From contig JAIPIB010000001.1 in the NCBI GenBank assembly GCA_021734905.1, positions 2,230 to 66,229 of the forward strand: 64,000 bases of DNA. Reading direction: 5' to 3'. A program made the translations under genes and the position numbers. This DNA comes from Minisyncoccota bacterium (GTDB lineage: Bacteria > Patescibacteriota > Minisyncoccia > Phycocordibacterales > UBA918). The notes under the pieces are model-generated. The model did not search any database. It saw only the letters and a program-made list of their open reading frames with translations, and had not been told where the DNA came from. Below, piece by piece: positions 35,877-57,861 of this stretch. How positions within the stretch are numbered: the stretch's first letter is position 1; every line of letters begins with the position of its first letter.

Positions 35877-36194
35877 ATGAAAACATTACAGCGAAAAATA
35901 ATGAGGGGAATCTACTATGCATACGCACTCAGGTTAGCGAGTCTTCCGGGAGTGTTCCATGGTTTTGTTATGCTTGGAATCATGATTGCTCTTACACATT
36001 TTGTTTCTATCGGAAACGTAATTGAAAATCTCTCGAATATTCAGTTGAGTCACGTTGGTACGTTTGTCTACAATGCAATCAGTACGACTGAATTATGGAC
36101 GCTTATCCTTATTGGGATGTTTGTGTTTCTCTCACTATCTCTTCGATTTAGTCTTGAGCCAAAGAGGGGAGGTTATACATTCATTCGAGCGTAA
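35877..36194 (+). CDS. small membrane protein downstream of ECF sigma (candidate anti-sigma factor)
   Basis: 3 predicted TM helices; position only. Confidence 0.3.
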   Translation: MKTLQRKIMRGIYYAYALRLASLPGVFHGFVMLGIMIALTHFVSIGNVIENLSNIQLSHVGTFVYNAISTTELWTLILIGMFVFLSLSLRFSLEPKRGGYTFIRA

Positions 36195-36204
36195 AAGAAG
36201 TAAT

Positions 36205-36241
36205 AAAACACCCGCGGCCCTTTGGGCCGCGGGTGTTTTAT
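36205..36241. terminator. bidirectional intrinsic terminator (acacccgcggcc-cttt-gggccgcgggtgt) between convergent genes and recA
   Basis: perfect 12-bp GC-rich stem with A/T runs both sides. Confidence 0.8.
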
Positions 36242-36252
36242 TTATTGAGAAC

Positions 36253-37347
36253 TTATACCACTTCCTTCAATGATTTTTTTACGAGCTTCAGTACTTCATT
36301 CATGAGTTTTGCATCCCCACGAAGTGTCGTCCTTGCTGCGTCGTATCCTCTTCCGAGTTTCACTTCTGTACTAGCGTCTCCACCAGGAGGGAGGTATGTG
36401 TACGAAGATCCCGATTTTTTTATAAAGCCAAATTTTTCTCCAAGAGCGAGAAGCTCTCCTTCTCGACTAATTCCTTCGTTATAGATAAGGTCGAATTCAG
36501 TTGTCTTGAAAGGCGCAGCAACTTTATTTTTAACTACCTTTACACGATGACGACCTCCGACTACCTCGTCGCCCTTTTTGATTTGAGCTATTCGTCGAAT
36601 GTCTAGACGAACGGATGTGTAAAATTTAAGTGCCTTTCCTCCGGGTGTTGTTTCTGGATTCCCAAACATCACACCAATTTGCATACGTATTTGGTTGATG
36701 AAAATAACAATAGTTTTTGATTTCGCAACGATTGAAGTAAGTTTTCGAAGAGCCTGACTCATGAGTCGAGCCTGTTTTCCAACATGATGTGCACCCATCT
36801 CACCTTCAATTTCATCACGAGGAGTAAGCGCAGCAACTGAGTCAATGACAATTATGTCAATTTTACCGGAACGAACAAGCGATTCAACAATTTCTAGAGC
36901 TTGTTCGCCGTTGTCGGGTTGTGAGATGAGGAGTTCATCAAGCTTCACACCGAGATTTTGTGTGTATATAGGATCCATTGCATGTTCAGCATCAATAAAT
37001 GCACAGATACCACCAAGTTTTTGTGCCTCAGCAATTGCATGAAGAGAGAGGGTGGTTTTTCCTGAAGATTCAGGTCCATATATCTCAATAATTCGACCTC
37101 GCGGGAAGCCGCCAATACCGAGAGCCTCATCAAGACCTATGGATCCAGTCGAGACAGCATCAACGTCTACTTTTCGTGTGCTACCAAGCGTCATGATTGC
37201 CTCGTCTCCAAATTTTGTCTTAATGCTCCTTAATGTCTCTGCAATACCAGCCATGCCTTCCTTTACAGCATCGTCAGGACTCATATTTTTCGAAACTTCT
37301 TCTTTGGGTAAAACTTTTGGCTTTAATTCTTTCTTTTTTGCTGGCAT
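36253..37347 (-). CDS. recA: recombinase RecA
   Basis: Walker [12 protein letters not shown]1/L2 loop regions, full-length RecA. Confidence 0.95.
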
Positions 37348-37360
37348 GCTTAGATTTTGT

Positions 37361-37562
37361 TACGAACGCAGTGAGTTAGAAAATCTTAGCTGTCGGAAAA
37401 TACTATTCATAATGTATTTTAACGACGAACGAAGTCAAACTACCACTTCACTTGTTCTTGATAATACACTGATAATTATACAGTACGAACGCAGTGAGTT
37501 AGAAAATCTTAGCTGTCGGAAAATACTATTCATAATGTATTTTAACGACGAACGAAGTCAAA
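37361..37562. repeat. two ~80-bp direct repeats (37361-37440, 37484-37562) in recA upstream region; each contains TATTCATAATG hairpin and a segment homologous to rplL leader
   Basis: units identical over ~79 nt; reverse complement reads ..cagctaagattttctaactcactgcgttcgtaacaaaatctaagcATG (recA start), cf. 48518-48575. Confidence 0.75.
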
Positions 37563-37612
37563 ACTCGTGCGTTTCTCTATTTATAATTCTAATTAAGTAT
37601 ACTACATTGATT

Positions 37613-37987
37613 TTATGACGGTAACGGCACATACACGTACCCTCTCATAAGGGAAGTGGTTCTACCAAATCGGTCCTGTGCATTAAGAGACATTATTGTG
37701 TAGCCATTTTCAAGAACTAACATTTGTGTAAAACCACCATCTTGATTTGTGTGGATTTCATTACCGTTGAGTGTTAGTTTTACAACGTTATGAGCGTCTC
37801 CAGAAAGCACTATACTGCGTTCATGTTGAATTGGGACGTATTCACCAGTAAGAGAAATGGTTGGGCCAAGGATGATGTTTCTGGCTTGAAACTGTATATA
37901 CAAAGCAAGAAGTACGAGTAAAAGGATACCCCCAATCACACGAATGCTAGTACCAAGTGTTGTTTCCGATATGCCAAAAGGAGCCAT
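37613..37987 (-). CDS. hypothetical small membrane-anchored protein
   Basis: N-terminal TM then beta-rich domain; downstream of ftsK. Confidence 0.35.
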   Translation of the reverse strand: MAPFGISETTLGTSIRVIGGILLLVLLALYIQFQARNIILGPTISLTGEYVPIQHERSIVLSGDAHNVVKLTLNGNEIHTNQDGGFTQMLVLENGYTIMSLNAQDRFGRTTSLMRGYVYVPLPS

Positions 37988-37993
37988 AATTAA

Positions 37994-40162
37994 TTAAACC
38001 TCGTCTTCAGACTCTGAATCTCGAGCACTGTCGATGACTAATCGAGGCCGTGAACCATCTGCAGGGCCAATAACACCACGTTCTTCAAGTACATCCATGA
38101 GTCGTGCGGCGCGTGAGTAGCCGAGGCGGAGTTTTCGCTGAAGGTATGATGTGGATGCTTTTCCAGCTTCAAGTACAGCAAGTCGTGCATCCTCGTAGAG
38201 TTCATCATCATCCTCATCATCACCGATACTTGAAGCAAATATAGAGTCCGAATCGGTCTTGTCGCCAGATGGATCAAGATTGATGGTGTCGAGCTCTTGG
38301 ATGGACTCCTGATCCTTTAGATAGCTCACGACACGCTTCACTTCATCAATGGTCACAAAGGCAGATTGTAAGCGCATTGGTTTTGGACTTTCAGCTGAAA
38401 GGAAGAGCATGTCACCTTGCCCAAGAAGTTTTTCTGCACCGCTTTGGTCAAGGATAGTACGAGAATCAATTTGTGACGCTACTTGGAGTGCAATACGAGT
38501 AGGGACATTGGCCTTAATGAGGCCTGTGATGACGTTCACAGACGGTCGCTGTGTAGAAAGAATGAGGTGAATTCCCACAGCACGACTCATTTGTGCGAGG
38601 CGCACAATACACGCTTCAAGTTCTTTTGGATATGTAGACATGAGGTCTGCAAGTTCATCAATGATGATGACAATGTACGGTAGTGGTTCTGGAAGAGCGT
38701 CACGTTCTTCGTCTGGAGATCCTTTTTCCTCGAAGGCACGTTTTGCTGGATGGTAGATTGTTTCGTGGTAGGTCGCGATATTTTGGACACGTTCTTTTCC
38801 AAGAATATCAAGTCGTCGTTCCATTTCTTTCATTGACCACTTGAGTGCGACGATTACTTTCTTAGCATCAATAATGACGGGAGTAAGGAGGTGCGGAATT
38901 CCATTGTAGAGGGTGAGTTCAATACGTTTTGGATCAACCATAATGAAACGAAGTTGGTCTGGTGAGTTACGGAAGAGAAGTGATATGACGACGTTGTGAA
39001 TCGCAACAGATTTTCCAGATCCGGTCGTACCAGCAATCAGTCCGTGTGGCATGCGTGCAATGTCTGCGAATTGTGCTTCGCCGGTAATATTTTTTCCAAG
39101 CGCAGTAAGGAGTGGTTTCGGTGAGTCAGTATATTCTGGGGAAGAGAAGAGTGACGCGAGTCCGAGTGTCTGCTTTTGTTTATTAGGCACCTCGATACCA
39201 ACAAGTGATTTTCCAGGAATTGGCGCTTCGATACGAATTGGACTTGAAGCAAGGGCGTATTCGAGATTCGTTTGAAGACCGACAATTTTTTCAAGCTTAA
39301 CGCCTTCTGCGGGCTTTATGGCGTATCTTGTGACCGACGAGCCAATAGTTACCGCGTCCATCTCAACATCAATGTTAAATTTCTTTAACGTCCGTTTAAT
39401 GGTGTTCGAGTTTGCTTTTACGTCACCAACATCAGGTTTCCCCTTGTCTTTATGTAAAAGAGAGAGTGGGGGTGCGGCATATGTCCCTCGGAAGCTTGAA
39501 ACAACAAACTCAGCCCCAGTTGCGCGACTAAGAATCTTCTCAGCAAGAGATTTCTTTTTGGGAGCAGCTTCATCAGCTGATTCAGCTTCCTCATTTTCCT
39601 GTTCGGATTCCTCGGAGTCTGTTGCGGGGAGGTTAACAATAGGTTCAGTGTCTTCGAGGTCCTCGGAATCTTTTCTTTGGAAGAGATGAAGGAAATTTGT
39701 GTTGAATGTAAGGAAGAGACCAACCATAAATAGTGCTACGAGGATGATTCCTGTAACAACACCTCCGAAGAGACTCGTGAGAGGTCGAAATACAATGGTT
39801 CCGAGAGCACCACCTTCTGAAAATGACAACTCAAGAAGAGCGAGAGCTGCGAGAAAGGCAAGAGAGATTCCTACTATTTTAGAACCACTGACACGGTTGT
39901 CTTCTCGAGGCTTTAAAAATACATAGACGAGAAGAGAACAGACAATTGGCGCAAGGACAAACCCATACCCAAAGAGGTAGTAAAGTGCATCATGTGTCAT
40001 CTCTCCTGCAATACCCGCATACCCGAGTGATGAAAAGATAAAGAAAATAGCAAGGACGACAAAGAAAATAGCAACAATTGCTTGTTTCGTGTGAGGGGAA
40101 AGATCGTCAAAAAATGAACCTTGTATTTGTGAAGCTGAATTTTGTTTGCGCCGCTTAGCCAT
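37994..40162 (-). CDS. ftsK: DNA translocase FtsK/SpoIIIE
   Basis: N-terminal TM domain, acidic linker, Walker A GTTGSGKS, C-terminal gamma wHTH (..SYLQRKLRLGYSRAARLMDVLEERG). Confidence 0.9.
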   Translation of the reverse strand: MAKRRKQNSASQIQGSFFDDLSPHTKQAIVAIFFVVLAIFFIFSSLGYAGIAGEMTHDALYYLFGYGFVLAPIVCSLLVYVFLKPREDNRVSGSKIVGISLAFLAALALLELSFSEGGALGTIVFRPLTSLFGGVVTGIILVALFMVGLFLTFNTNFLHLFQRKDSEDLEDTEPIVNLPATDSEESEQENEEAESADEAAPKKKSLAEKILSRATGAEFVVSSFRGTYAAPPLSLLHKDKGKPDVGDVKANSNTIKRTLKKFNIDVEMDAVTIGSSVTRYAIKPAEGVKLEKIVGLQTNLEYALASSPIRIEAPIPGKSLVGIEVPNKQKQTLGLASLFSSPEYTDSPKPLLTALGKNITGEAQFADIARMPHGLIAGTTGSGKSVAIHNVVISLLFRNSPDQLRFIMVDPKRIELTLYNGIPHLLTPVIIDAKKVIVALKWSMKEMERRLDILGKERVQNIATYHETIYHPAKRAFEEKGSPDEERDALPEPLPYIVIIIDELADLMSTYPKELEACIVRLAQMSRAVGIHLILSTQRPSVNVITGLIKANVPTRIALQVASQIDSRTILDQSGAEKLLGQGDMLFLSAESPKPMRLQSAFVTIDEVKRVVSYLKDQESIQELDTINLDPSGDKTDSDSIFASSIGDDEDDDELYEDARLAVLEAGKASTSYLQRKLRLGYSRAARLMDVLEERGVIGPADGSRPRLVIDSARDSESEDEV

Positions 40163-52465: not shown

Positions 52466-53025
52466 ATTCCTTACAGGAATGTTAAGGGTGTATGGTGGAT
52501 GCCTAGGCTTCAAGAAGCGATGAAGGACGTGATATGGCTGCGATAAGCGTGGGGGAGATGCCAAATAATCGTTATATCCCACGATTTCCGAATGAGGAAA
52601 CTCACCTGCTTACGGCAGGTACCCTTGAATGAGGGAGCGTACCCAGGGAAGTGAAACATCACAGTACCTGGAGGAAAAGAAAGCAAAAAACGGGACTTTC
52701 TTTCTGACTTTTGAACAGCTTGCTGTTCTCCATTGAAGTCAGGAAGAAGGTTCTCGCGATTCCCTTAGTAGCGGCGAGCGAAAAGGGTAGAGCCCAAACC
52801 ATTCGTATTTATATGGATGGGGTTGTAGGGCAGTAGTGTCATTTAGTTGAGAAGAGTTACAAAATGTTGTCATAATAAAACGCGTTGGGAAGCGCGACCC
52901 AAGAAGGTAATAGTCCTGTATATGAAATTTCAACAACTCTTTTGCTACTGTTCCTGAGTAGTTCGGGACATGAATAGCCCGAATGAATCTGGGAGGACTA
53001 ACTCCTAAGGCTAAATATTCTTGAA

Positions 53026-53071
<46 letters not shown>

Positions 53072-53639
53072 GGAGAGGGGAGTGAAATAGATCTGAAACC
53101 ATACATCTACAAGGAGTCGAAGCCCTGCGGGGCGACGGCGTGCCTATTGAAGAATGAGCCGGCGAGTGTATCTTTATTCTTTGTCTAAGTGGTAAACCCA
53201 CGGAGGCGTAGTGAAAGCGAGCGTGAATAGCGCGAATATAGAGTAAGGATACGACCCGAAGCGGGATGAGCTTGCCATGTGCAGGGTGAAGCGAAGGTAA
53301 AACTTCGTGGAGGCCCGAACCGGTTGGCCGTTCAAAACCATCGGATGACATGTGGTAGGGAGTGAAAAGCTAATCGAATTCCGTAATAGCTGGTTCTCTC
53401 CGAAACAGCTTTAGGGTTGGCGTCGTGTGTTCCTCCTGGGGGTAGAGCTCTGGAAGGTCTAAATAGGGAGAAATCTCGTTAGACCTATCAAACTACGAAT
53501 ACCAGGTAGTCACAGCACGGCAGTTAGACTACGGGGGAGAAGCTCCGTTGGTCGAAAGGGAAACAGCCCAGATCGCCAGTTAAGGTCCCAAAATATATGC
53601 TCAGTGCAACTTGAGGAGGTGAGGATTCATAAACAGTCA

Positions 53640-53671
<32 letters not shown>

Positions 53672-54514
53672 GAAAGCGTAACAGCTCACTGATCGAGAGT
53701 CCTTGCGCCGAAGATGATCGGGGCTCAAGCATATTACCGAAACTGCGGATGTCACTTTTCTTCGGAAAAGTGGCGTGGTAGGAGAGCGTTCTGTTCTGCA
53801 ATGAAGCCAAGGTGTAAACCACGGTGGAGCGTACAGAAGTGAGAATGCCGGCACAAGTAACCGCAAGACGGGTGAGAACCCCGTCCGCCGAAATACCGAG
53901 GTTTCCTTCGCTATGCTGATCAGCGAAGGGTTAGTCGGTCCTAAGCCGATCCCGAATGGGGGAGGCGATGGATAGCAGGTTAATATTCCTGCACACTGTT
54001 GCGTTGCGATGGAGGGACGGAGGGTTGTACCCAAAGCATCTTATTGGATTGGTGCTGGAACTATGAGGAGGTGTGGTAGGCAAATCCGCCACACAATACT
54101 CCGAGTAGGGTCTGAACGTAAGGCTTCGGCCGAGCGAATGAGGGGAGCACGCTTCCTAGAAAAACTTCTAAGCATAAACGTAACGGTTCCGTACCGCAAA
54201 CCGACACAGGTGGTAGGGTCGAGAAGACCAAGGCGAACGAGTGAGGGGTCCTTAAGGAACTCGGCAAAAAAGCGGCCGTAACTTCGGGATAAGGCCTGCC
54301 TTTGCCCCTTCGGGGGTTAAAGGCCGCAGCGAAAGATTTCCTGGCAACTGTTTAACAAAAACACAGCTCCCTGCGAACACGTAAGTGGATGTATAGGGGG
54401 TGACGCCTGACCAATGCCGGAAGGTTAAATATGGGGGGTCTTATGTATTTATATGTAAGGCTGGACTATATAAGCCCCGGTCAATGTCAGCGATAACTAT
54501 AATCGTTCTAAGGT

Positions 54515-54712
54515 TCAGCAATTTTTCTTCGGAAAAATTGCTGATAGGACTGGAACGATTATGGGTTAAACATATAACGCCGAACAAGCTACCTTGCATC
54601 CAGAAATGTATGCATAGTCCAAATTGCAACCAACAAGAGACCAAATGTTGCACATCTTAACTATCGAAAGATAAAAGATGAAGATAGAGTCCTTCTGCAA
54701 TAGGAATAGAAG
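54515..54712 (+). other. 198-nt intervening sequence in 23S domain IV between AAGGU and AGCG (E. coli ~L1917-1923 region); degenerate group-I-like mini-intron?
   Basis: Exon sequence contiguous in E. coli; insert preceded by U, ends in G; contains gatgaagatagagtcc nearly identical to S-element segment of the downstream intron; starts with perfect UUCG-type hairpin cagcaattttt-cttcgg-aaaaattgctg. Confidence 0.55.
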
Positions 54713-55279
54713 AGCGCAATTCCTTGTCGGGTAAGTTCCGACGTGCACGAAAGGCGTAATGACTGGGAAACTGTCTCAAGGACCTGCTCGGTGAAAATAC
54801 AATGGGGGTGAAGATGCCCCCTACCTGCAGTTAGACGAAAAGACCCCAGGAGCTTTACTGTAGCTTCGTATTGGGGCTGTTGAATTAATGCGTAGCATAG
54901 AAGGGAGACTTTGAAGCGAGCTTTCGGGTTTCGTGGAGTCGCCAGTGAAATACCTTTCTTTAATTTGGCAGTTCCTAACCTCTTAGAAAAAATCTAAGAG
55001 AGACAGTGCGTGGCAGGCAGTTTTAGTGGGGCGCTACCCTCCTAAAAAGTAACGGAGGGGTCTCAAGGTTGGCTAGGCGCGAATGGAAACCGTGCCGATA
55101 GTGTAATGGCATAAGCCAGCTTGACTGTAAGGCGTCAGTGCCGAACAGATGCGAAAGCAGAGCATAGTGAACCGACGGTACGCTTTAGACGCGGCCGGAG
55201 ATTATCTGACAAAAGTTACCCTGGGGATAACAGGCTAGTCGTGCCCAAGCGTCCATAGCGACGGCACGGTTCGGCACCT

Positions 55280-55646
55280 TAACTTATTTATGGTATTTCA
55301 CTCAGCAATGGGTGTTTATATCAAGTTATAAATACATCGGGGTGCCTAGAGTAGCAATACTCTATAAAAATAAATTGGCTATATGCTGGAACTCCTGAGT
55401 CAAAATTAAGCATACAAGGCCCAAACAGTAATTTGAAAAAATAAGCTGTGTGGCTTGAAAACATTGTATGTTCAGGACAATCAGCAGGGAAGACTTCTAA
55501 GTTATTTAAAATAATATGAAGAACCCTCAGAGACTACACGCCAATCTCCAACTCTAAGTAGAGCTGGATGAAGATATAGTCCGATCCTCGTAGTAATACG
55601 AGTGTATAGTAAAAGTAGATAGAATTTTTACTATACAAAACGACAG
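55280..55646 (+). other. group I self-splicing intron (367 nt, no ORF) in 23S domain V at E. coli L2500-equivalent site
   Basis: Interrupts GGCACCU|CGAUGUCGGCUC; 5' exon ends in U, intron ends in G; candidate IGS gggtgt (55310-55315) pairs with exon gcaccu giving U-G at splice site; conserved Q aatcagcagg (55479-55488), R cctcagagactacacg (55525-55540), S aagatatagtcc (55571-55582). Confidence 0.85.
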
Positions 55647-55676
55647 CGATGTCGGCTCAACTTATCCTGGGGCTGG

Positions 55677-55712
<36 letters not shown>

Positions 55713-55717
55713 AAGTT

Positions 55718-55755
<38 letters not shown>

Positions 55756-56160
55756 CTCTATCTACTGCAGGCGTCGATTCTTGAAGAGATTTGTCCCTAG
55801 TACGAGAGGACCGGGATGAACTGACCTCTGGTCTATCTGCTGTCACGCCAGTGGCACCGCAGAGTAGCTATGTTGGGAATGGATAACTGCTGAAAGCATC
55901 TAAGCAGGAAGCCAACTCTAAGATTAGGAATCATTAAGTCCCCTGAGAGATGATCAGGTTGATAGGCACTAGGTGTAAGCGCAGCAATGTGTGGAGCCGA
56001 GGTGTACTAATTAGACGTAATTCCTGTAGGGAATGCTGTACATCGCCCCAAATGAACAAAATTAACGCACTGTTTTTAATTTTGGACATTTAGGAGTGAA
56101 AAGCTATACAATTTTTTGGAGTATTGTTTTATGTTTGTCGTCGTTTTAGAATATGTGATT

Positions 56161-56232
56161 GAACAAACGAGCGTAGCGACTATTGTGAAATTATGTCCCG
56201 ATTTCTTCTAACAGAGAAGTAATCGCTGGACC
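56161..56232 (+). repeat. REP-like element, B-variant, in 23S-tRNA spacer
   Basis: gagcgtagcgactattgtgaaattatgtcccgatttcttctaacagagaagtaatcgctggacc; ~66/66 identical to 56957-57030 copy. Confidence 0.7.
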
Positions 56233-56261: not shown

Positions 56262-56730
56262 ATTGACAATTGAATACTGTAATGTGGTTTTTAAACCATA
56301 AAGATCAGAGACGAATCAAAATTTCCGCTATCGGTCGCCAACCTCCCAAGTTTCAGGCATATCCGATACGTGTGTGTTTACATTTTGATTGACTTGCTCA
56401 GGTAGGCATTCCATGGCGGCTTTTGCCTCCTAACCTGCCGCCCGCGATTCTTCGCTACCTTGCGCAGTCATGCAAGTTGGGAGCTTTCTCCCCGTCTCTC
56501 CCTCGTTCTTTGTCTGTCGGTGGTGTATAGAAATTGTACGATTTTTCTGCCTTTCTTCATTCTTTTGGGATGTAGCTCAGCTAGAGGGTTATTGCAACTT
56601 CTTAGGTAGAGTGCCAATTGTTCCCGGTTGTCAACATCCGGTAAAAAGATTGGAGGTCGCTGGTTCGAATCCAGCCATCCCGACCATTGCTATTTCTTTG
56701 GAAATAGCATCACATTACAGTATTCAATAG
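56262..56730 (+). other. inverted repeat attgaatactgtaatgtg (56270-56287) / cacattacagtattcaat (56711-56728) bracketing the tRNA: candidate processing stem
   Basis: 18-bp perfect complementarity seen in sequence. Confidence 0.5.
56566..56686 (+). tRNA. aberrant over-long tRNA gene (121 nt) with canonical acceptor/T-arm/encoded CCA but ~22-nt insert in D-loop and ~23-nt insert in anticodon loop; isotype unresolved
   Basis: 5' tgggatg-ta-gctc-ag.. and 3' ..gaggtc-gctgg-ttcgaat-ccagc-catcccg-a-cca; anticodon stem ccaat/attgg encloses 30 nt instead of 7. Confidence 0.5.
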
Positions 56731-56956
56731 ATAAAATGCACCATTACAGCTTTTGTAGGGGAGATAGGAAGTAGTTTAAGGAGGAAAACATACAGGAAGT
56801 AACCCAAAGGGTAAACATAACTGCCAGATCCGTCTGTCAGAATCGCCTGCATATGACCAATTCGAGTTTGGTCCGCCTATCTTTCCCGCCTGAATCTAGA
56901 TATTCAGGTTTCCTACAAAAGCTATAATGAATTGAAAATTGAATATTTAAAGTTGA

Positions 56957-57030
56957 ATGAACAAAGGAGCGTAGCGACTATTGTGAAATTATGTCCCGAT
57001 TTCTTCTAACAGAGAAGTAATCGCTGGACG
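56957..57030 (+). repeat. REP-like element, B-variant, in tRNA-5S spacer
   Basis: near-identical to 56161-56232 copy. Confidence 0.7.
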
Positions 57031-57147
57031 GTGGTTTCATAAGGGGTTGTCGATATCTTGACGGAAGGAACGATATCATATAACCTGAACAGCGACTGAA
57101 AGTCGAATCCGTTCCTAAAAAGAATTTTGAAAATTGAATAATTGAAG

Positions 57148-57267
<120 letters not shown>

Positions 57268-57296
57268 TCTTCAATTTTCAAAAATTCTTTTTAGAT

Positions 57297-57325
57297 AAAA
57301 ACCAGAATCAATTCTGGTTTTTATT
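57297..57325 (+). terminator. rRNA operon intrinsic terminator (accagaat-caa-ttctggt + TTTTT)
   Basis: seen in sequence. Confidence 0.8.
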
Positions 57326-57476
57326 TATTCCGAACACGAAAAATATCACTTTCCTCATTCGTTCGGAAATGTAAGAAAGTGTTCTTCCACTTCACTCGCT
57401 CATTCGAAAACCAAGCTTGCTTGCATCGATAAAACATCATCCCATGATATTTTATCCCCTTCAGGGGGAGAGAAAT
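57325..57476 (+). pseudogene. degenerate partial 5S rRNA copy (pseudo-5S) downstream of operon terminator
   Basis: ttattccgaacacg.., 18/18 identity aagcttgcttgcatcgat, ccttcagggggagag vs ccttcggggggagag of the intact 5S; interrupted by ~60-nt and ~25-nt inserts. Confidence 0.5.
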
Positions 57477-57861
57477 GTGATGGGACCCATTTCGCAAGAC
57501 TCATTGAGATAGTTTGTGAGCGAAGCGAAACAAAATATCCAATGAGTGGACAGTTCCTGTAGGGAAAGTAGATCGCCTTCGCCCAGCACATTCCTCTGGG
57601 TAGAGGAATGTGGCGTAGAAATTCAACATAGTCGTTGCACTCCTTGTTTCATTCCACTTTAAGTGCTTTTTATGTATGAAGGAAGGTCCTCCTTACAGGA
57701 GCTGTTCAGGTCGTATGACAATTTCTTGCGAAAGTTTCCCAAACTTCCTCACGCCAACTTAGAGTTTTCAAAAGAAAAAGACCCCACAAAGGGGTCTTTT
57801 TCTTTGATGCAGCAAAATTTTGTTACATCTGTTTTCAGTTTCATCTGGTACAATATTCAAT

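Follow-up and report, generated by a model that had tools for sequence, protein, structure and literature searches.

The window analysed here, a stretch of 64,000 nucleotides from a Minisyncoccota bacterium (GenBank assembly GCA_021734905.1, contig JAIPIB010000001.1), carries in its 23S-5S rRNA spacer a tRNA-like element of 121 nt with a D loop and an anticodon loop of 30 nt each. This element is very probably a non-decoding member of a family in which such expansions are tolerated; it is not a one-off oddity, the family being clade-wide and its anticodon loop generally unconstrained. The full explanation, held with moderate confidence, is that of a tRNA-derived, cis-acting rRNA-processing signal resembling a t-element. 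Family membership, a non-decoding architecture, structural selection, a conserved position in the spacer and a conserved bracketing stem were all supported directly. An earlier note on this DNA had listed a pseudo-tRNA kept as a processing signal among its options, and that option gave the best fit to the comparative evidence (33 relatives, compensatory changes in the stems, conserved bracketing stem).

Arm parsing and the Rfam tRNA model (56566-56683; 37.7 bits for a gathering score of 29; 27 extra bases in the D loop and 29 in the anticodon loop) reproduced exactly the anatomy given in the earlier note, both 30-nt loops and the encoded CCA included. The acceptor stem joins TGGGATG (56566-56572) to CATCCCG (56676-56682) with a U1-G72 wobble, and is followed by A73 (56683) and CCA (56684-56686). 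The D stem GCTC/GAGT (56575-56578 and 56609-56612) and the anticodon stem CCAAT/ATTGG (56614-56618 and 56649-56653) each enclose 30 nt, and the variable region reads AGGTC. All parts of a canonical cloverleaf were present (7-bp acceptor stem, D stem, 5-bp anticodon stem, 5-bp T stem and a loop of the TTCRANY form); a canonical anticodon loop (7 nt, U33, purine 37) and a D loop of about 7-11 nt were not. The isolated 121 nt folded at minimum energy into a cloverleaf with one small hairpin per insert, at a z-score of only -1.9. Default ARAGORN reported zero tRNAs across the whole 64 kb and no 76-nt tRNA exists in an alternative register at the element, which settled a doubt that the earlier note had raised. 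The ARAGORN intron search labelled the element tRNA-Gly(CCC) with a 23-nt intron, a model that requires an aberrant D arm. A SAM riboswitch at 56558-56652 was dismissed (20.7 bits for a threshold of 44.4). A strict pattern scan of the genome contigs revealed no long forms with the same acceptor; of two pattern scans of metagenome collections devoid of the window lineage, one gave no match and the other picked up nothing but two ordinary tRNAs, unrelated and belonging to a high-GC organism.

The comparison set consisted of 59 related loci, designated here by L numbers: 56 with a 23S end and a 5S gene, and three with a 5S gene and no usable 23S end. The inspection of orthologous spacers that the earlier note had proposed was rewarding, since 33 of the 59 loci displayed a homologous, mostly non-decoding element with covarying stems. 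Together with the window this amounted to 34 members, all located in the 23S-5S spacer, which measured 79-781 nt in the 56 loci and 1.1 kb in the window; placement of the window element in that spacer, as first reported, was borne out. The ARAGORN intron search indicated tRNA-like genes just upstream of 5S in many related spacers, with incoherent anticodons (Val, His, Asp, Leu, Trp, Pro, "???") despite very similar acceptor, D and T arms. Members from L002, L015, L043, L080, L012, L063 and others were labelled Val(UAC), His(AUG), Asp(AUC), Leu(AAG), Trp(CCA) or 'tRNA-???' with anticodons of two or four bases, in default or intron mode. These identities are likely mis-annotations. The elements of the window, L044, L051, L036, L061 and L074 are among those that ARAGORN misses.

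Nineteen relatives of normal length, the window not among them, served to build a covariance model, R1; longer or more reduced members were added by a search for acceptor, T arm and ACCA. R1 aligned to the window element over all 77 model positions (57.4 bits, E 3e-14), with the extra bases inserted in the D and anticodon loops, and produced 44 matches across 81 sources. The window element showed both traits of the R1 family, a full-length model match and a 23S-5S position inside a stem that spans 15 bp or more. Conservation in the family was highest in the T arm with the 3' acceptor strand, also the sole part of the element matched by spacer BLAST in relatives. Elements from L036/L040, L061, L074 and L055 retained only the acceptor stem, ACCA and a hairpin resembling a T arm, and the centres that these enclose varied greatly in length; the close relative L002 harboured a normal-length member with stems unlike those of the window.

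Conservation of shape was pronounced. The arm-by-arm consensus reads xGGGGYG-TA-GCKC-AGYYTGGTA-GMGC-N-[5 bp]-loop-[5 bp]-AGGTC-[T arm]-CRCCCCG-ACCA; what the family keeps is the acceptor stem, the anticodon stem, the T arm, the D stem along with G18 G19 and, usually, the ACCA end. Alignment A3, comprising the cores of the 34 members with loops removed, displayed standard pairs in 96.6 % of cells, a percentage inflated by the pairing-rewarding tools used to collect members. Less affected by this bias were the compensatory changes, found at 17 of 21 pairs with all four stems covarying, and the slid-partner control: the covariation score was 0.58, compared with 0.17 in shuffled alignments (0 of 500 reached it) and about 0.1 with slid partners. 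G53, T54, A58 and C61 were invariant in the 34 members and G18 G19 occurred in all parsed D loops.

The anticodon loop, by comparison, is generally unconstrained across the family. Its length was 3 (L013), 4 (L068), 5 (L080), 6 (L012, L008) or 8 nt (L046, L063) at the short end and 14 (L071), 30 (L024, window), 38 (L044) or 66 nt (L051) at the long end, and several 7-nt loops lacked U33 or a purine at 37. Only eight of the 27 scorable loops were canonical (7 nt, U33, purine 37), five of which read Pro (NGG with G37). L062, L063 and L068 do not differ in their anticodon and T stems, yet have anticodon loops of 7, 8 and 4 nt, respectively. The subclade formed by L012, L051, L080 and L044 shares an extra bulged base in the acceptor 5' strand (C-1 G1 [A/T] G G G T G facing CACCCCG), a feature for which we know of no working elongator tRNA. 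Anticodon loops in these four members were all non-canonical while their mutual differences in the D, anticodon and T stems were compensatory, which argues that shape stayed under selection after decoding had been lost.

The two inserts of the window element were examined individually. Without its hairpin the D loop reads AGCTGGTA, identical to that of L012 and other relatives, and L064 carries a larger insert at the identical site along with the same rare GCTC/GAGT D stem. The closest relative by core identity (82 %), L044, has a 38-nt anticodon replacement similar in layout to that of the window, in which an outer stem of 5 bp is followed by an asymmetric internal loop, a CCGG-containing inner helix and a terminal loop. 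Because of this similarity the extension may predate the window lineage, a proposal drawn from two sequences only. Each insert was single-copy in 64 kb with up to three mismatches allowed, and BLAST of both against 1.06 Mb of related loci gave no match; a dispersed mini-repeat origin (MITE- or SDR-like) was rejected for want of any recurrence in the window or its relatives. The gtt(a/g)t..caac motif that the earlier note saw in both inserts is indeed present. As a sign of their kinship it found no support, since 686 of 5000 shuffles aligned equally well (p about 0.14), and a common origin was set aside on that ground.

Introns were considered in two forms. The BHB motif, named for its bulge-helix-bulge layout, has two 3-nt bulges on opposite strands, 4 bp apart. 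The D-loop insert folded as a plain hairpin, and the anticodon insert displayed a 4-nt/6-nt internal loop with both sides on the outer side of the 4-bp CCGG helix, an internal helix that had been predicted correctly. Archaeal-like BHB introns, one of the options first put forward, were rejected: two staggered 3-nt bulges were lacking, kinship of the inserts was at chance level and the anticodon loop could not be restored. Excision joined AGCT to GGTA and recovered a canonical D loop; direct reading of the 30-nt anticodon loop showed that, whichever 23 nt are excised, position 33 becomes A or G, so that the original objection to canonical 37/38 introns held. Group I introns of bacterial tRNAs lie in the anticodon loop, have a catalytic core (P3-P8) and are normally longer than 200 nt; here the inserts measure 22-23 nt, no core was found and the only Intron_gpI match fell inside the 23S gene, so that a group I intron was rejected as well. 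Both the 22-nt hairpin of the D loop and the 30-nt extension of the anticodon arm are expansions specific to the lineage, and the option of unusual expansions in the earlier note describes them correctly. They are tolerated and not spliced because both loops face away from the acceptor/T-arm half and the elbow.

Most family members were surrounded by an uninterrupted bracketing helix of 15-29 bp, in which the theme GTGAAATGGTTT / ACCATTTCAC recurs and the rest of the arms shows compensatory differences. In the window, the bracketing inverted repeat claimed initially proved perfect over 18 bp (56269-56286 / 56711-56728) and extended to 20 bp with one G-U pair; the bracketed unit (56263-56732) folded with z = -5.9 compared to shuffled sequence. 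In relatives, 1-8 nt usually separate the left arm from the element 5' end, or about 80-150 nt where an ordinary tRNA occupies the gap; the right arm begins 12-50 nt past ACCA, often behind a small hairpin. Hairpins occur in L036 and L061 at the place equivalent to window 56689-56708.

The module descends from a tRNA gene, most likely tRNA-Pro, located in the 23S-5S spacer of an ancestor of this clade of the Candidate Phyla Radiation (CPR). C1-G72 combined with A73 is a bacterial tRNA-Pro signature. Five members display an NGG anticodon with G37, 18 out of 34 display C1-G72 and most (31 out of 34) A73, from which tRNA-Pro ancestry is deduced. Similar to t-elements, the window element retains acceptor stem and T arm in the absence of a functional anticodon, and the family holds a conserved position in the precursor region of a stable RNA (34 of 34 members in the 23S-5S spacer). 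Acceptor stem, T arm, elbow and ACCA are the parts read by RNase P, RNase Z and the CCA enzyme, and the insertion sites face away from all of them. The module is presumably co-transcribed with 23S and 5S. The 23S-5S precursor would then carry it at the end of a conserved stem of ~20 bp, which RNase III or another RNase specific for double strands could plausibly cut; RNase P would read the tRNA shape at the 5' end (56566), the tRNA 3'-end machinery would act at ACCA (56686), and the combined cuts would separate pre-23S from pre-5S.

Several observations weigh against a processing signal. The module was missing from about 25 of the 59 related spacers (about 40 %), close relatives L004 and L005 included, and is therefore dispensable; only a hairpin remains in L004 and L005 where the module would be. 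L049 and L004 keep the stem with a short loop only and no tRNA-like element, so that the stem is the more constant feature, with the element at its tip, and may be the essential signal in place of the tRNA shape. The window copy is itself atypical: it ends 468 nt before 5S (63-105 nt in most relatives), starts 277 nt after the left arm (1-8 nt in relatives) and belongs to a rearranged spacer bordered by a direct repeat of 76 nt. The window lineage is poorly sampled and without close relative (next match of the flanking VWA protein 69 % identical), cleavage at the module is a step that we infer, and the collection bias inflating the paired percentage belongs here too. Finally, part of the pattern could also arise if a working tRNA-Pro had been inactivated many times, independently, recently and by single events. 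This last point is the core of the view that the module is a neutral relic, a dead spacer tRNA gene inactivated independently and recently in many lineages with only the stem mattering for processing. The frequent absence of the element, the stems that outlive it, the many loop defects amounting to single events (1-nt indels, one insertion) and the rearranged, repeat-flanked window spacer with a second, more decayed unit next to the element all agree with such a relic. Decay of this sort would however hardly concentrate defects in the anticodon loop, about 9 % of the molecule, while leaving the T-loop core invariant and the stems paired at 96.6 % (inflated as said above). Compensatory stem changes persist in subclades sharing a non-tRNA feature, and the 3' half of the element is among the few spacer segments that BLAST can align across the clade. 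A neutral relic was consequently judged possible, though unlikely.

Retention of the whole L-shape, including the anticodon stem and the G18 G19/T-loop elbow, exceeds the minimum needed by RNase P (the acceptor/T-arm half) and could speak for a stable trans-acting tRNA-like RNA, for instance a ribosome-assembly factor or a ribosome-associated RNA comparable to the tRNA of mammalian mitoribosomes. The usually encoded ACCA, co-location with the rRNA genes and the similar anticodon-arm layouts of the window and L044 point in the same direction. Such a role is hard to reconcile with frequent loss and with the most reduced members, which consist of acceptor and T arm only, and the anticodon arm, buried in mitoribosomes, is the least conserved part of the CPR family. 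This alternative seemed distinctly improbable, and slightly more so in the form of a processed RNA with its own function, such as in ribosome assembly or on the ribosome, in Kaiserbacteria/Paceibacteria. If that were true, the hairpins of the window, L044, L051 and L064 would be functional expansion segments and not junk. A genuine tRNA gene from which both inserts are removed as introns, by a BHB-type or other mechanism, would account for the perfect AGCUGGUA D loop restored by removal of the first insert and for the tRNA-Gly(CCC) prediction of ARAGORN, and would suit CPR rRNA genes, which are rich in insertions (PMC9297842), as well as the group I intron in the adjacent 23S gene. The sequence largely refutes it already: no excision yields a 7-nt loop with U33, neither BHB geometry nor a group I core was found in these 22-23 nt inserts, the ARAGORN model needs its aberrant D arm, and insert-free relatives with loops of 3-8 nt display a non-decoding family. 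It was considered very improbable. Less credible still is a chimeric tRNA generated by repeat-driven mis-joining during assembly. The flanking direct repeat (97 % identical) and a Logan contig that breaks inside 5S could be taken as hints of it. Both inserts, however, lie cleanly within loops with all four stems intact, the repeats are outside the element, and comparably long members occur in independently assembled genomes (L044, L051, L024, L064, L036).

The element shares features with several known systems. Ordinary bacterial spacer tRNAs (tRNA-Ile/Ala, 16S-23S) are likewise cloverleaves; they are co-transcribed with rRNA, and their excision by RNase P aids separation of precursors. Members from L073, L052, L023, L010 and L072 still resemble usable tRNA-Pro. 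Ordinary spacer tRNAs nevertheless decode and have canonical loops, whereas most CPR members have loops of 3-66 nt or lack U33, and the 23S-5S position is unusual in comparison. Intron-containing tRNAs (archaeal BHB, bacterial group I) also display extra sequence interrupting D and anticodon loops, but the window element has no BHB motif, no group I core and no restorable anticodon loop. In the bacterial Y RNA YrlA, a non-coding RNA, both termini are found at the anticodon stem and the acceptor side is closed off; the window element, in contrast, has its termini at an ordinary acceptor stem that carries ACCA. The link of YrlA is to Ro/Rsr, that of the CPR elements to an rRNA spacer. The tRNA-like domain of YrlA mimics the tRNA elbow and is non-decoding (bioRxiv 10.1101/312249). 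Plant mitochondrial t-elements, which are landmarks for 5' and 3' end formation by tRNA-processing enzymes (Forner et al. 2007, PMC1920247), similarly are tRNA-like structures within precursors of neighbouring RNAs. They are organellar, lie mostly beside mRNAs and show no sequence relationship to the CPR family; a bracketing stem and large loop expansions are not described for them.

The closest parallel was the t-element of Haloferax volcanii upstream of 5S rRNA (Holzle et al. 2008, RNA 14:928, as relayed in PMC3296008 and PMC4326828). According to these secondary accounts, Haloferax t-elements are substrates of tRNase Z and generally also of RNase P (PMC3296008, PMC4326828) and, like the CPR family, are tRNA-like, non-decoding parts of an rRNA precursor just upstream of 5S. 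The two differ in that the Haloferax element is archaeal and abuts the mature 5S 5' end, whereas the CPR family is bacterial, ends 63-105 nt upstream (468 nt in the window), and has a clear full-cloverleaf derivation, an encoded CCA and a long bracketing stem of its own. The 3' end of the window element hence does not coincide with the mature 5S 5' end as it does in Haloferax. Because tRNA-like processing signals are established in archaea and organelles, the CPR family is an extension and not a new kind of system.

A necessarily incomplete literature search found no description of spacer tRNA-like elements in CPR, an absence that is no proof, and the main paper on CPR rRNA features (PMC9297842) does not mention the spacer and its tRNAs. 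There appears to be no record so far of the CPR family, of its 23S-5S position, of an origin resembling tRNA-Pro or of loop sizes that span so wide a range. In CPR genomes, missing or mislabelling elements of this kind can bias tRNA repertoires, conclusions on codon usage and claims of suppression or recoding. The family is also a natural mutagenesis series of the tRNA parts that are kept when only shape matters: acceptor stem, T arm, elbow and even the anticodon stem last, and the loops do not, with large insertions tolerated at two sites, ahead of G18 in the D loop (position 16/17) and within the anticodon loop. It offers, moreover, a testable hypothesis for 23S/5S separation in organisms with reduced genomes.

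Coordinates of the tRNA-like element, its inserts and the surrounding features in the window
Feature	Position	Strand	Remarks
tRNA-like element, 121 nt	56566-56686	+	Acceptor stem, D, anticodon and T arms, A73, encoded CCA
D-loop hairpin insert, 22 nt (AGAGGGTTATTGCAACTTCTTA)	56583-56604	+	Between AGCT and GGTA (arm parsing)
Anticodon-loop replacement, 30 nt for 7 nt	56619-56648	+	Internal loop, CCGG/CCGG helix, small terminal hairpin
T arm GCTGG-TTCGAAT-CCAGC plus 3' acceptor strand CATCCCG	56659-56682	+	Most conserved part of the family
Bracketing stem, left arm (ATTGAATACTGTAATGTGGT)	56269-56288	+	Inverted repeat; forms in global fold of 56263-56732
Bracketing stem, right arm (ATCACATTACAGTATTCAAT)	56709-56728	+	Inverted repeat
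Small hairpin GCTATTTC-TTTG-GAAATAGC	56689-56708	+	Between CCA end and right arm (sequence, global fold)
Lineage-specific filler, 277 nt	56289-56565	+	Between left arm and element 5' end
Direct repeat, 76 nt, 97 % identical	56156-56231 / 56954-57029	+	Flanks the whole tRNA-like block
Second stem-bracketed unit	56742-56929	+	18-bp inverted repeat 56742-56759 / 56912-56929; T-arm-like hairpin CCAA-TTCGAGT-TTGG; possible acceptor pairing
23S rRNA gene	52472-56030	+	Upstream neighbour in presumed transcription unit of the element; contains group I intron
5S rRNA gene	57155-57262	+	Downstream neighbour; own extended stem 57115-57163 / 57253-57294

The filler gave no BLAST match in 81 related loci and no R1 or Rfam match. 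The second stem-bracketed unit may be a more decayed tRNA-like element, an uncertain assignment given that its R1 score was not significant (6.1 bits, E 0.48) and that ARAGORN matched it only at a relaxed threshold. The two repeat copies around the tRNA-like block suggest rearrangement of the spacer by recombination. A third copy of the 76-nt repeat lies at about 57590-57662 on the minus strand. The repeat is a conserved structured element of about 75-90 nt without Rfam entry, with the core ..GAATGAACAAACGAGCGTAGCGACTATTGTGAATTTATGTC-CCGATTTC..GAAATCGCTGGAC. Some 15 related genomes (among them L008, L012, L063, L054, L034, L013, L023, L058 and L072) have it on the strand opposite to 5S, immediately downstream of that gene. 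RNAalifold gave it 11 pairs, seven of them with compensatory changes, and G-U pairs indicated the functional strand.

The left arm of the 5S stem is formed by a 21-nt motif (TTGAAAATTGAATAATTGAAG-like, 57127-57147), which recurs at 56263-56283, at the left arm of the bracketing stem, and at 56932-56952, before the second 76-nt repeat. Its recurrence suggests kinship of the bracket stems with the 5S processing stem, or their duplication from it. Between 23S and 5S the window showed no strong terminator-like site, and a terminator-like hairpin follows 5S at about 57297-57325. Beyond this hairpin are 5S-like pieces on the plus strand (57327-57341, 57413-57430 and 57458-57472) separated by unrelated inserts of about 71 and 27 nt, none of which pieces attains any Rfam 5S score. 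Partial extra 5S-like copies were also present past 5S in L006 (1802-1876), L036 (7760-7832), L037 (1316-1384) and L040 (7117-7190, 7358-7381 and 7471-7514), as well as in L075, L004, L027 and L038.

The host was identified through its RodA homologues as a CPR/Patescibacteria bacterium belonging to Kaiserbacteria/Paceibacteria. The RodA gene lies 2.6 kb downstream and its homologues were all found in CPR/Patescibacteria metagenome-assembled genomes labelled Kaiserbacteria, Paceibacteria or Parcubacteria; the gene order 23S-5S-(VWA)-RodA was kept across related loci. Near-complete relatives include JACKGF010000001.1 (997 kb, L072), JACKGC010000001.1 (L055) and JBKBPM010000001.1 (L039), and the host itself occurs in SRR12088351. 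Identical copies of the flanking VWA protein occurred only in Logan contigs of the same sample. The independent Logan contig from this sample breaks inside the 5S gene, which leaves the spacer unconfirmed by a second assembly. No 16S rRNA gene was present in the 52 kb upstream of 23S (window 1-52471), and the rRNA genes are on this account unlinked.

The group I intron in the 23S gene is 367 nt long (55280-55646, limits set by comparison with relatives; Rfam Intron_gpI match 55328-55603) and is the sole large 23S insertion of the window relative to L012. Insertions at other sites were displayed by L010, L054, L079, L036, L063, L078, L077, L043 and L032, at window equivalents ~53750, ~54300, ~54520, ~54644, ~55739 and ~55802; this spread is typical of CPR intron mobility. 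GC skew was positive across the 64 kb in 2-kb bins with the single exception of 36001-38000. An inverted repeat of ~100 nt after the L7/L12 gene (48979-49080) contains a GC-rich hairpin with flanking T and A runs; plant miRNA models matched it on both strands, far under their thresholds, and it looks like an ordinary bidirectional terminator.

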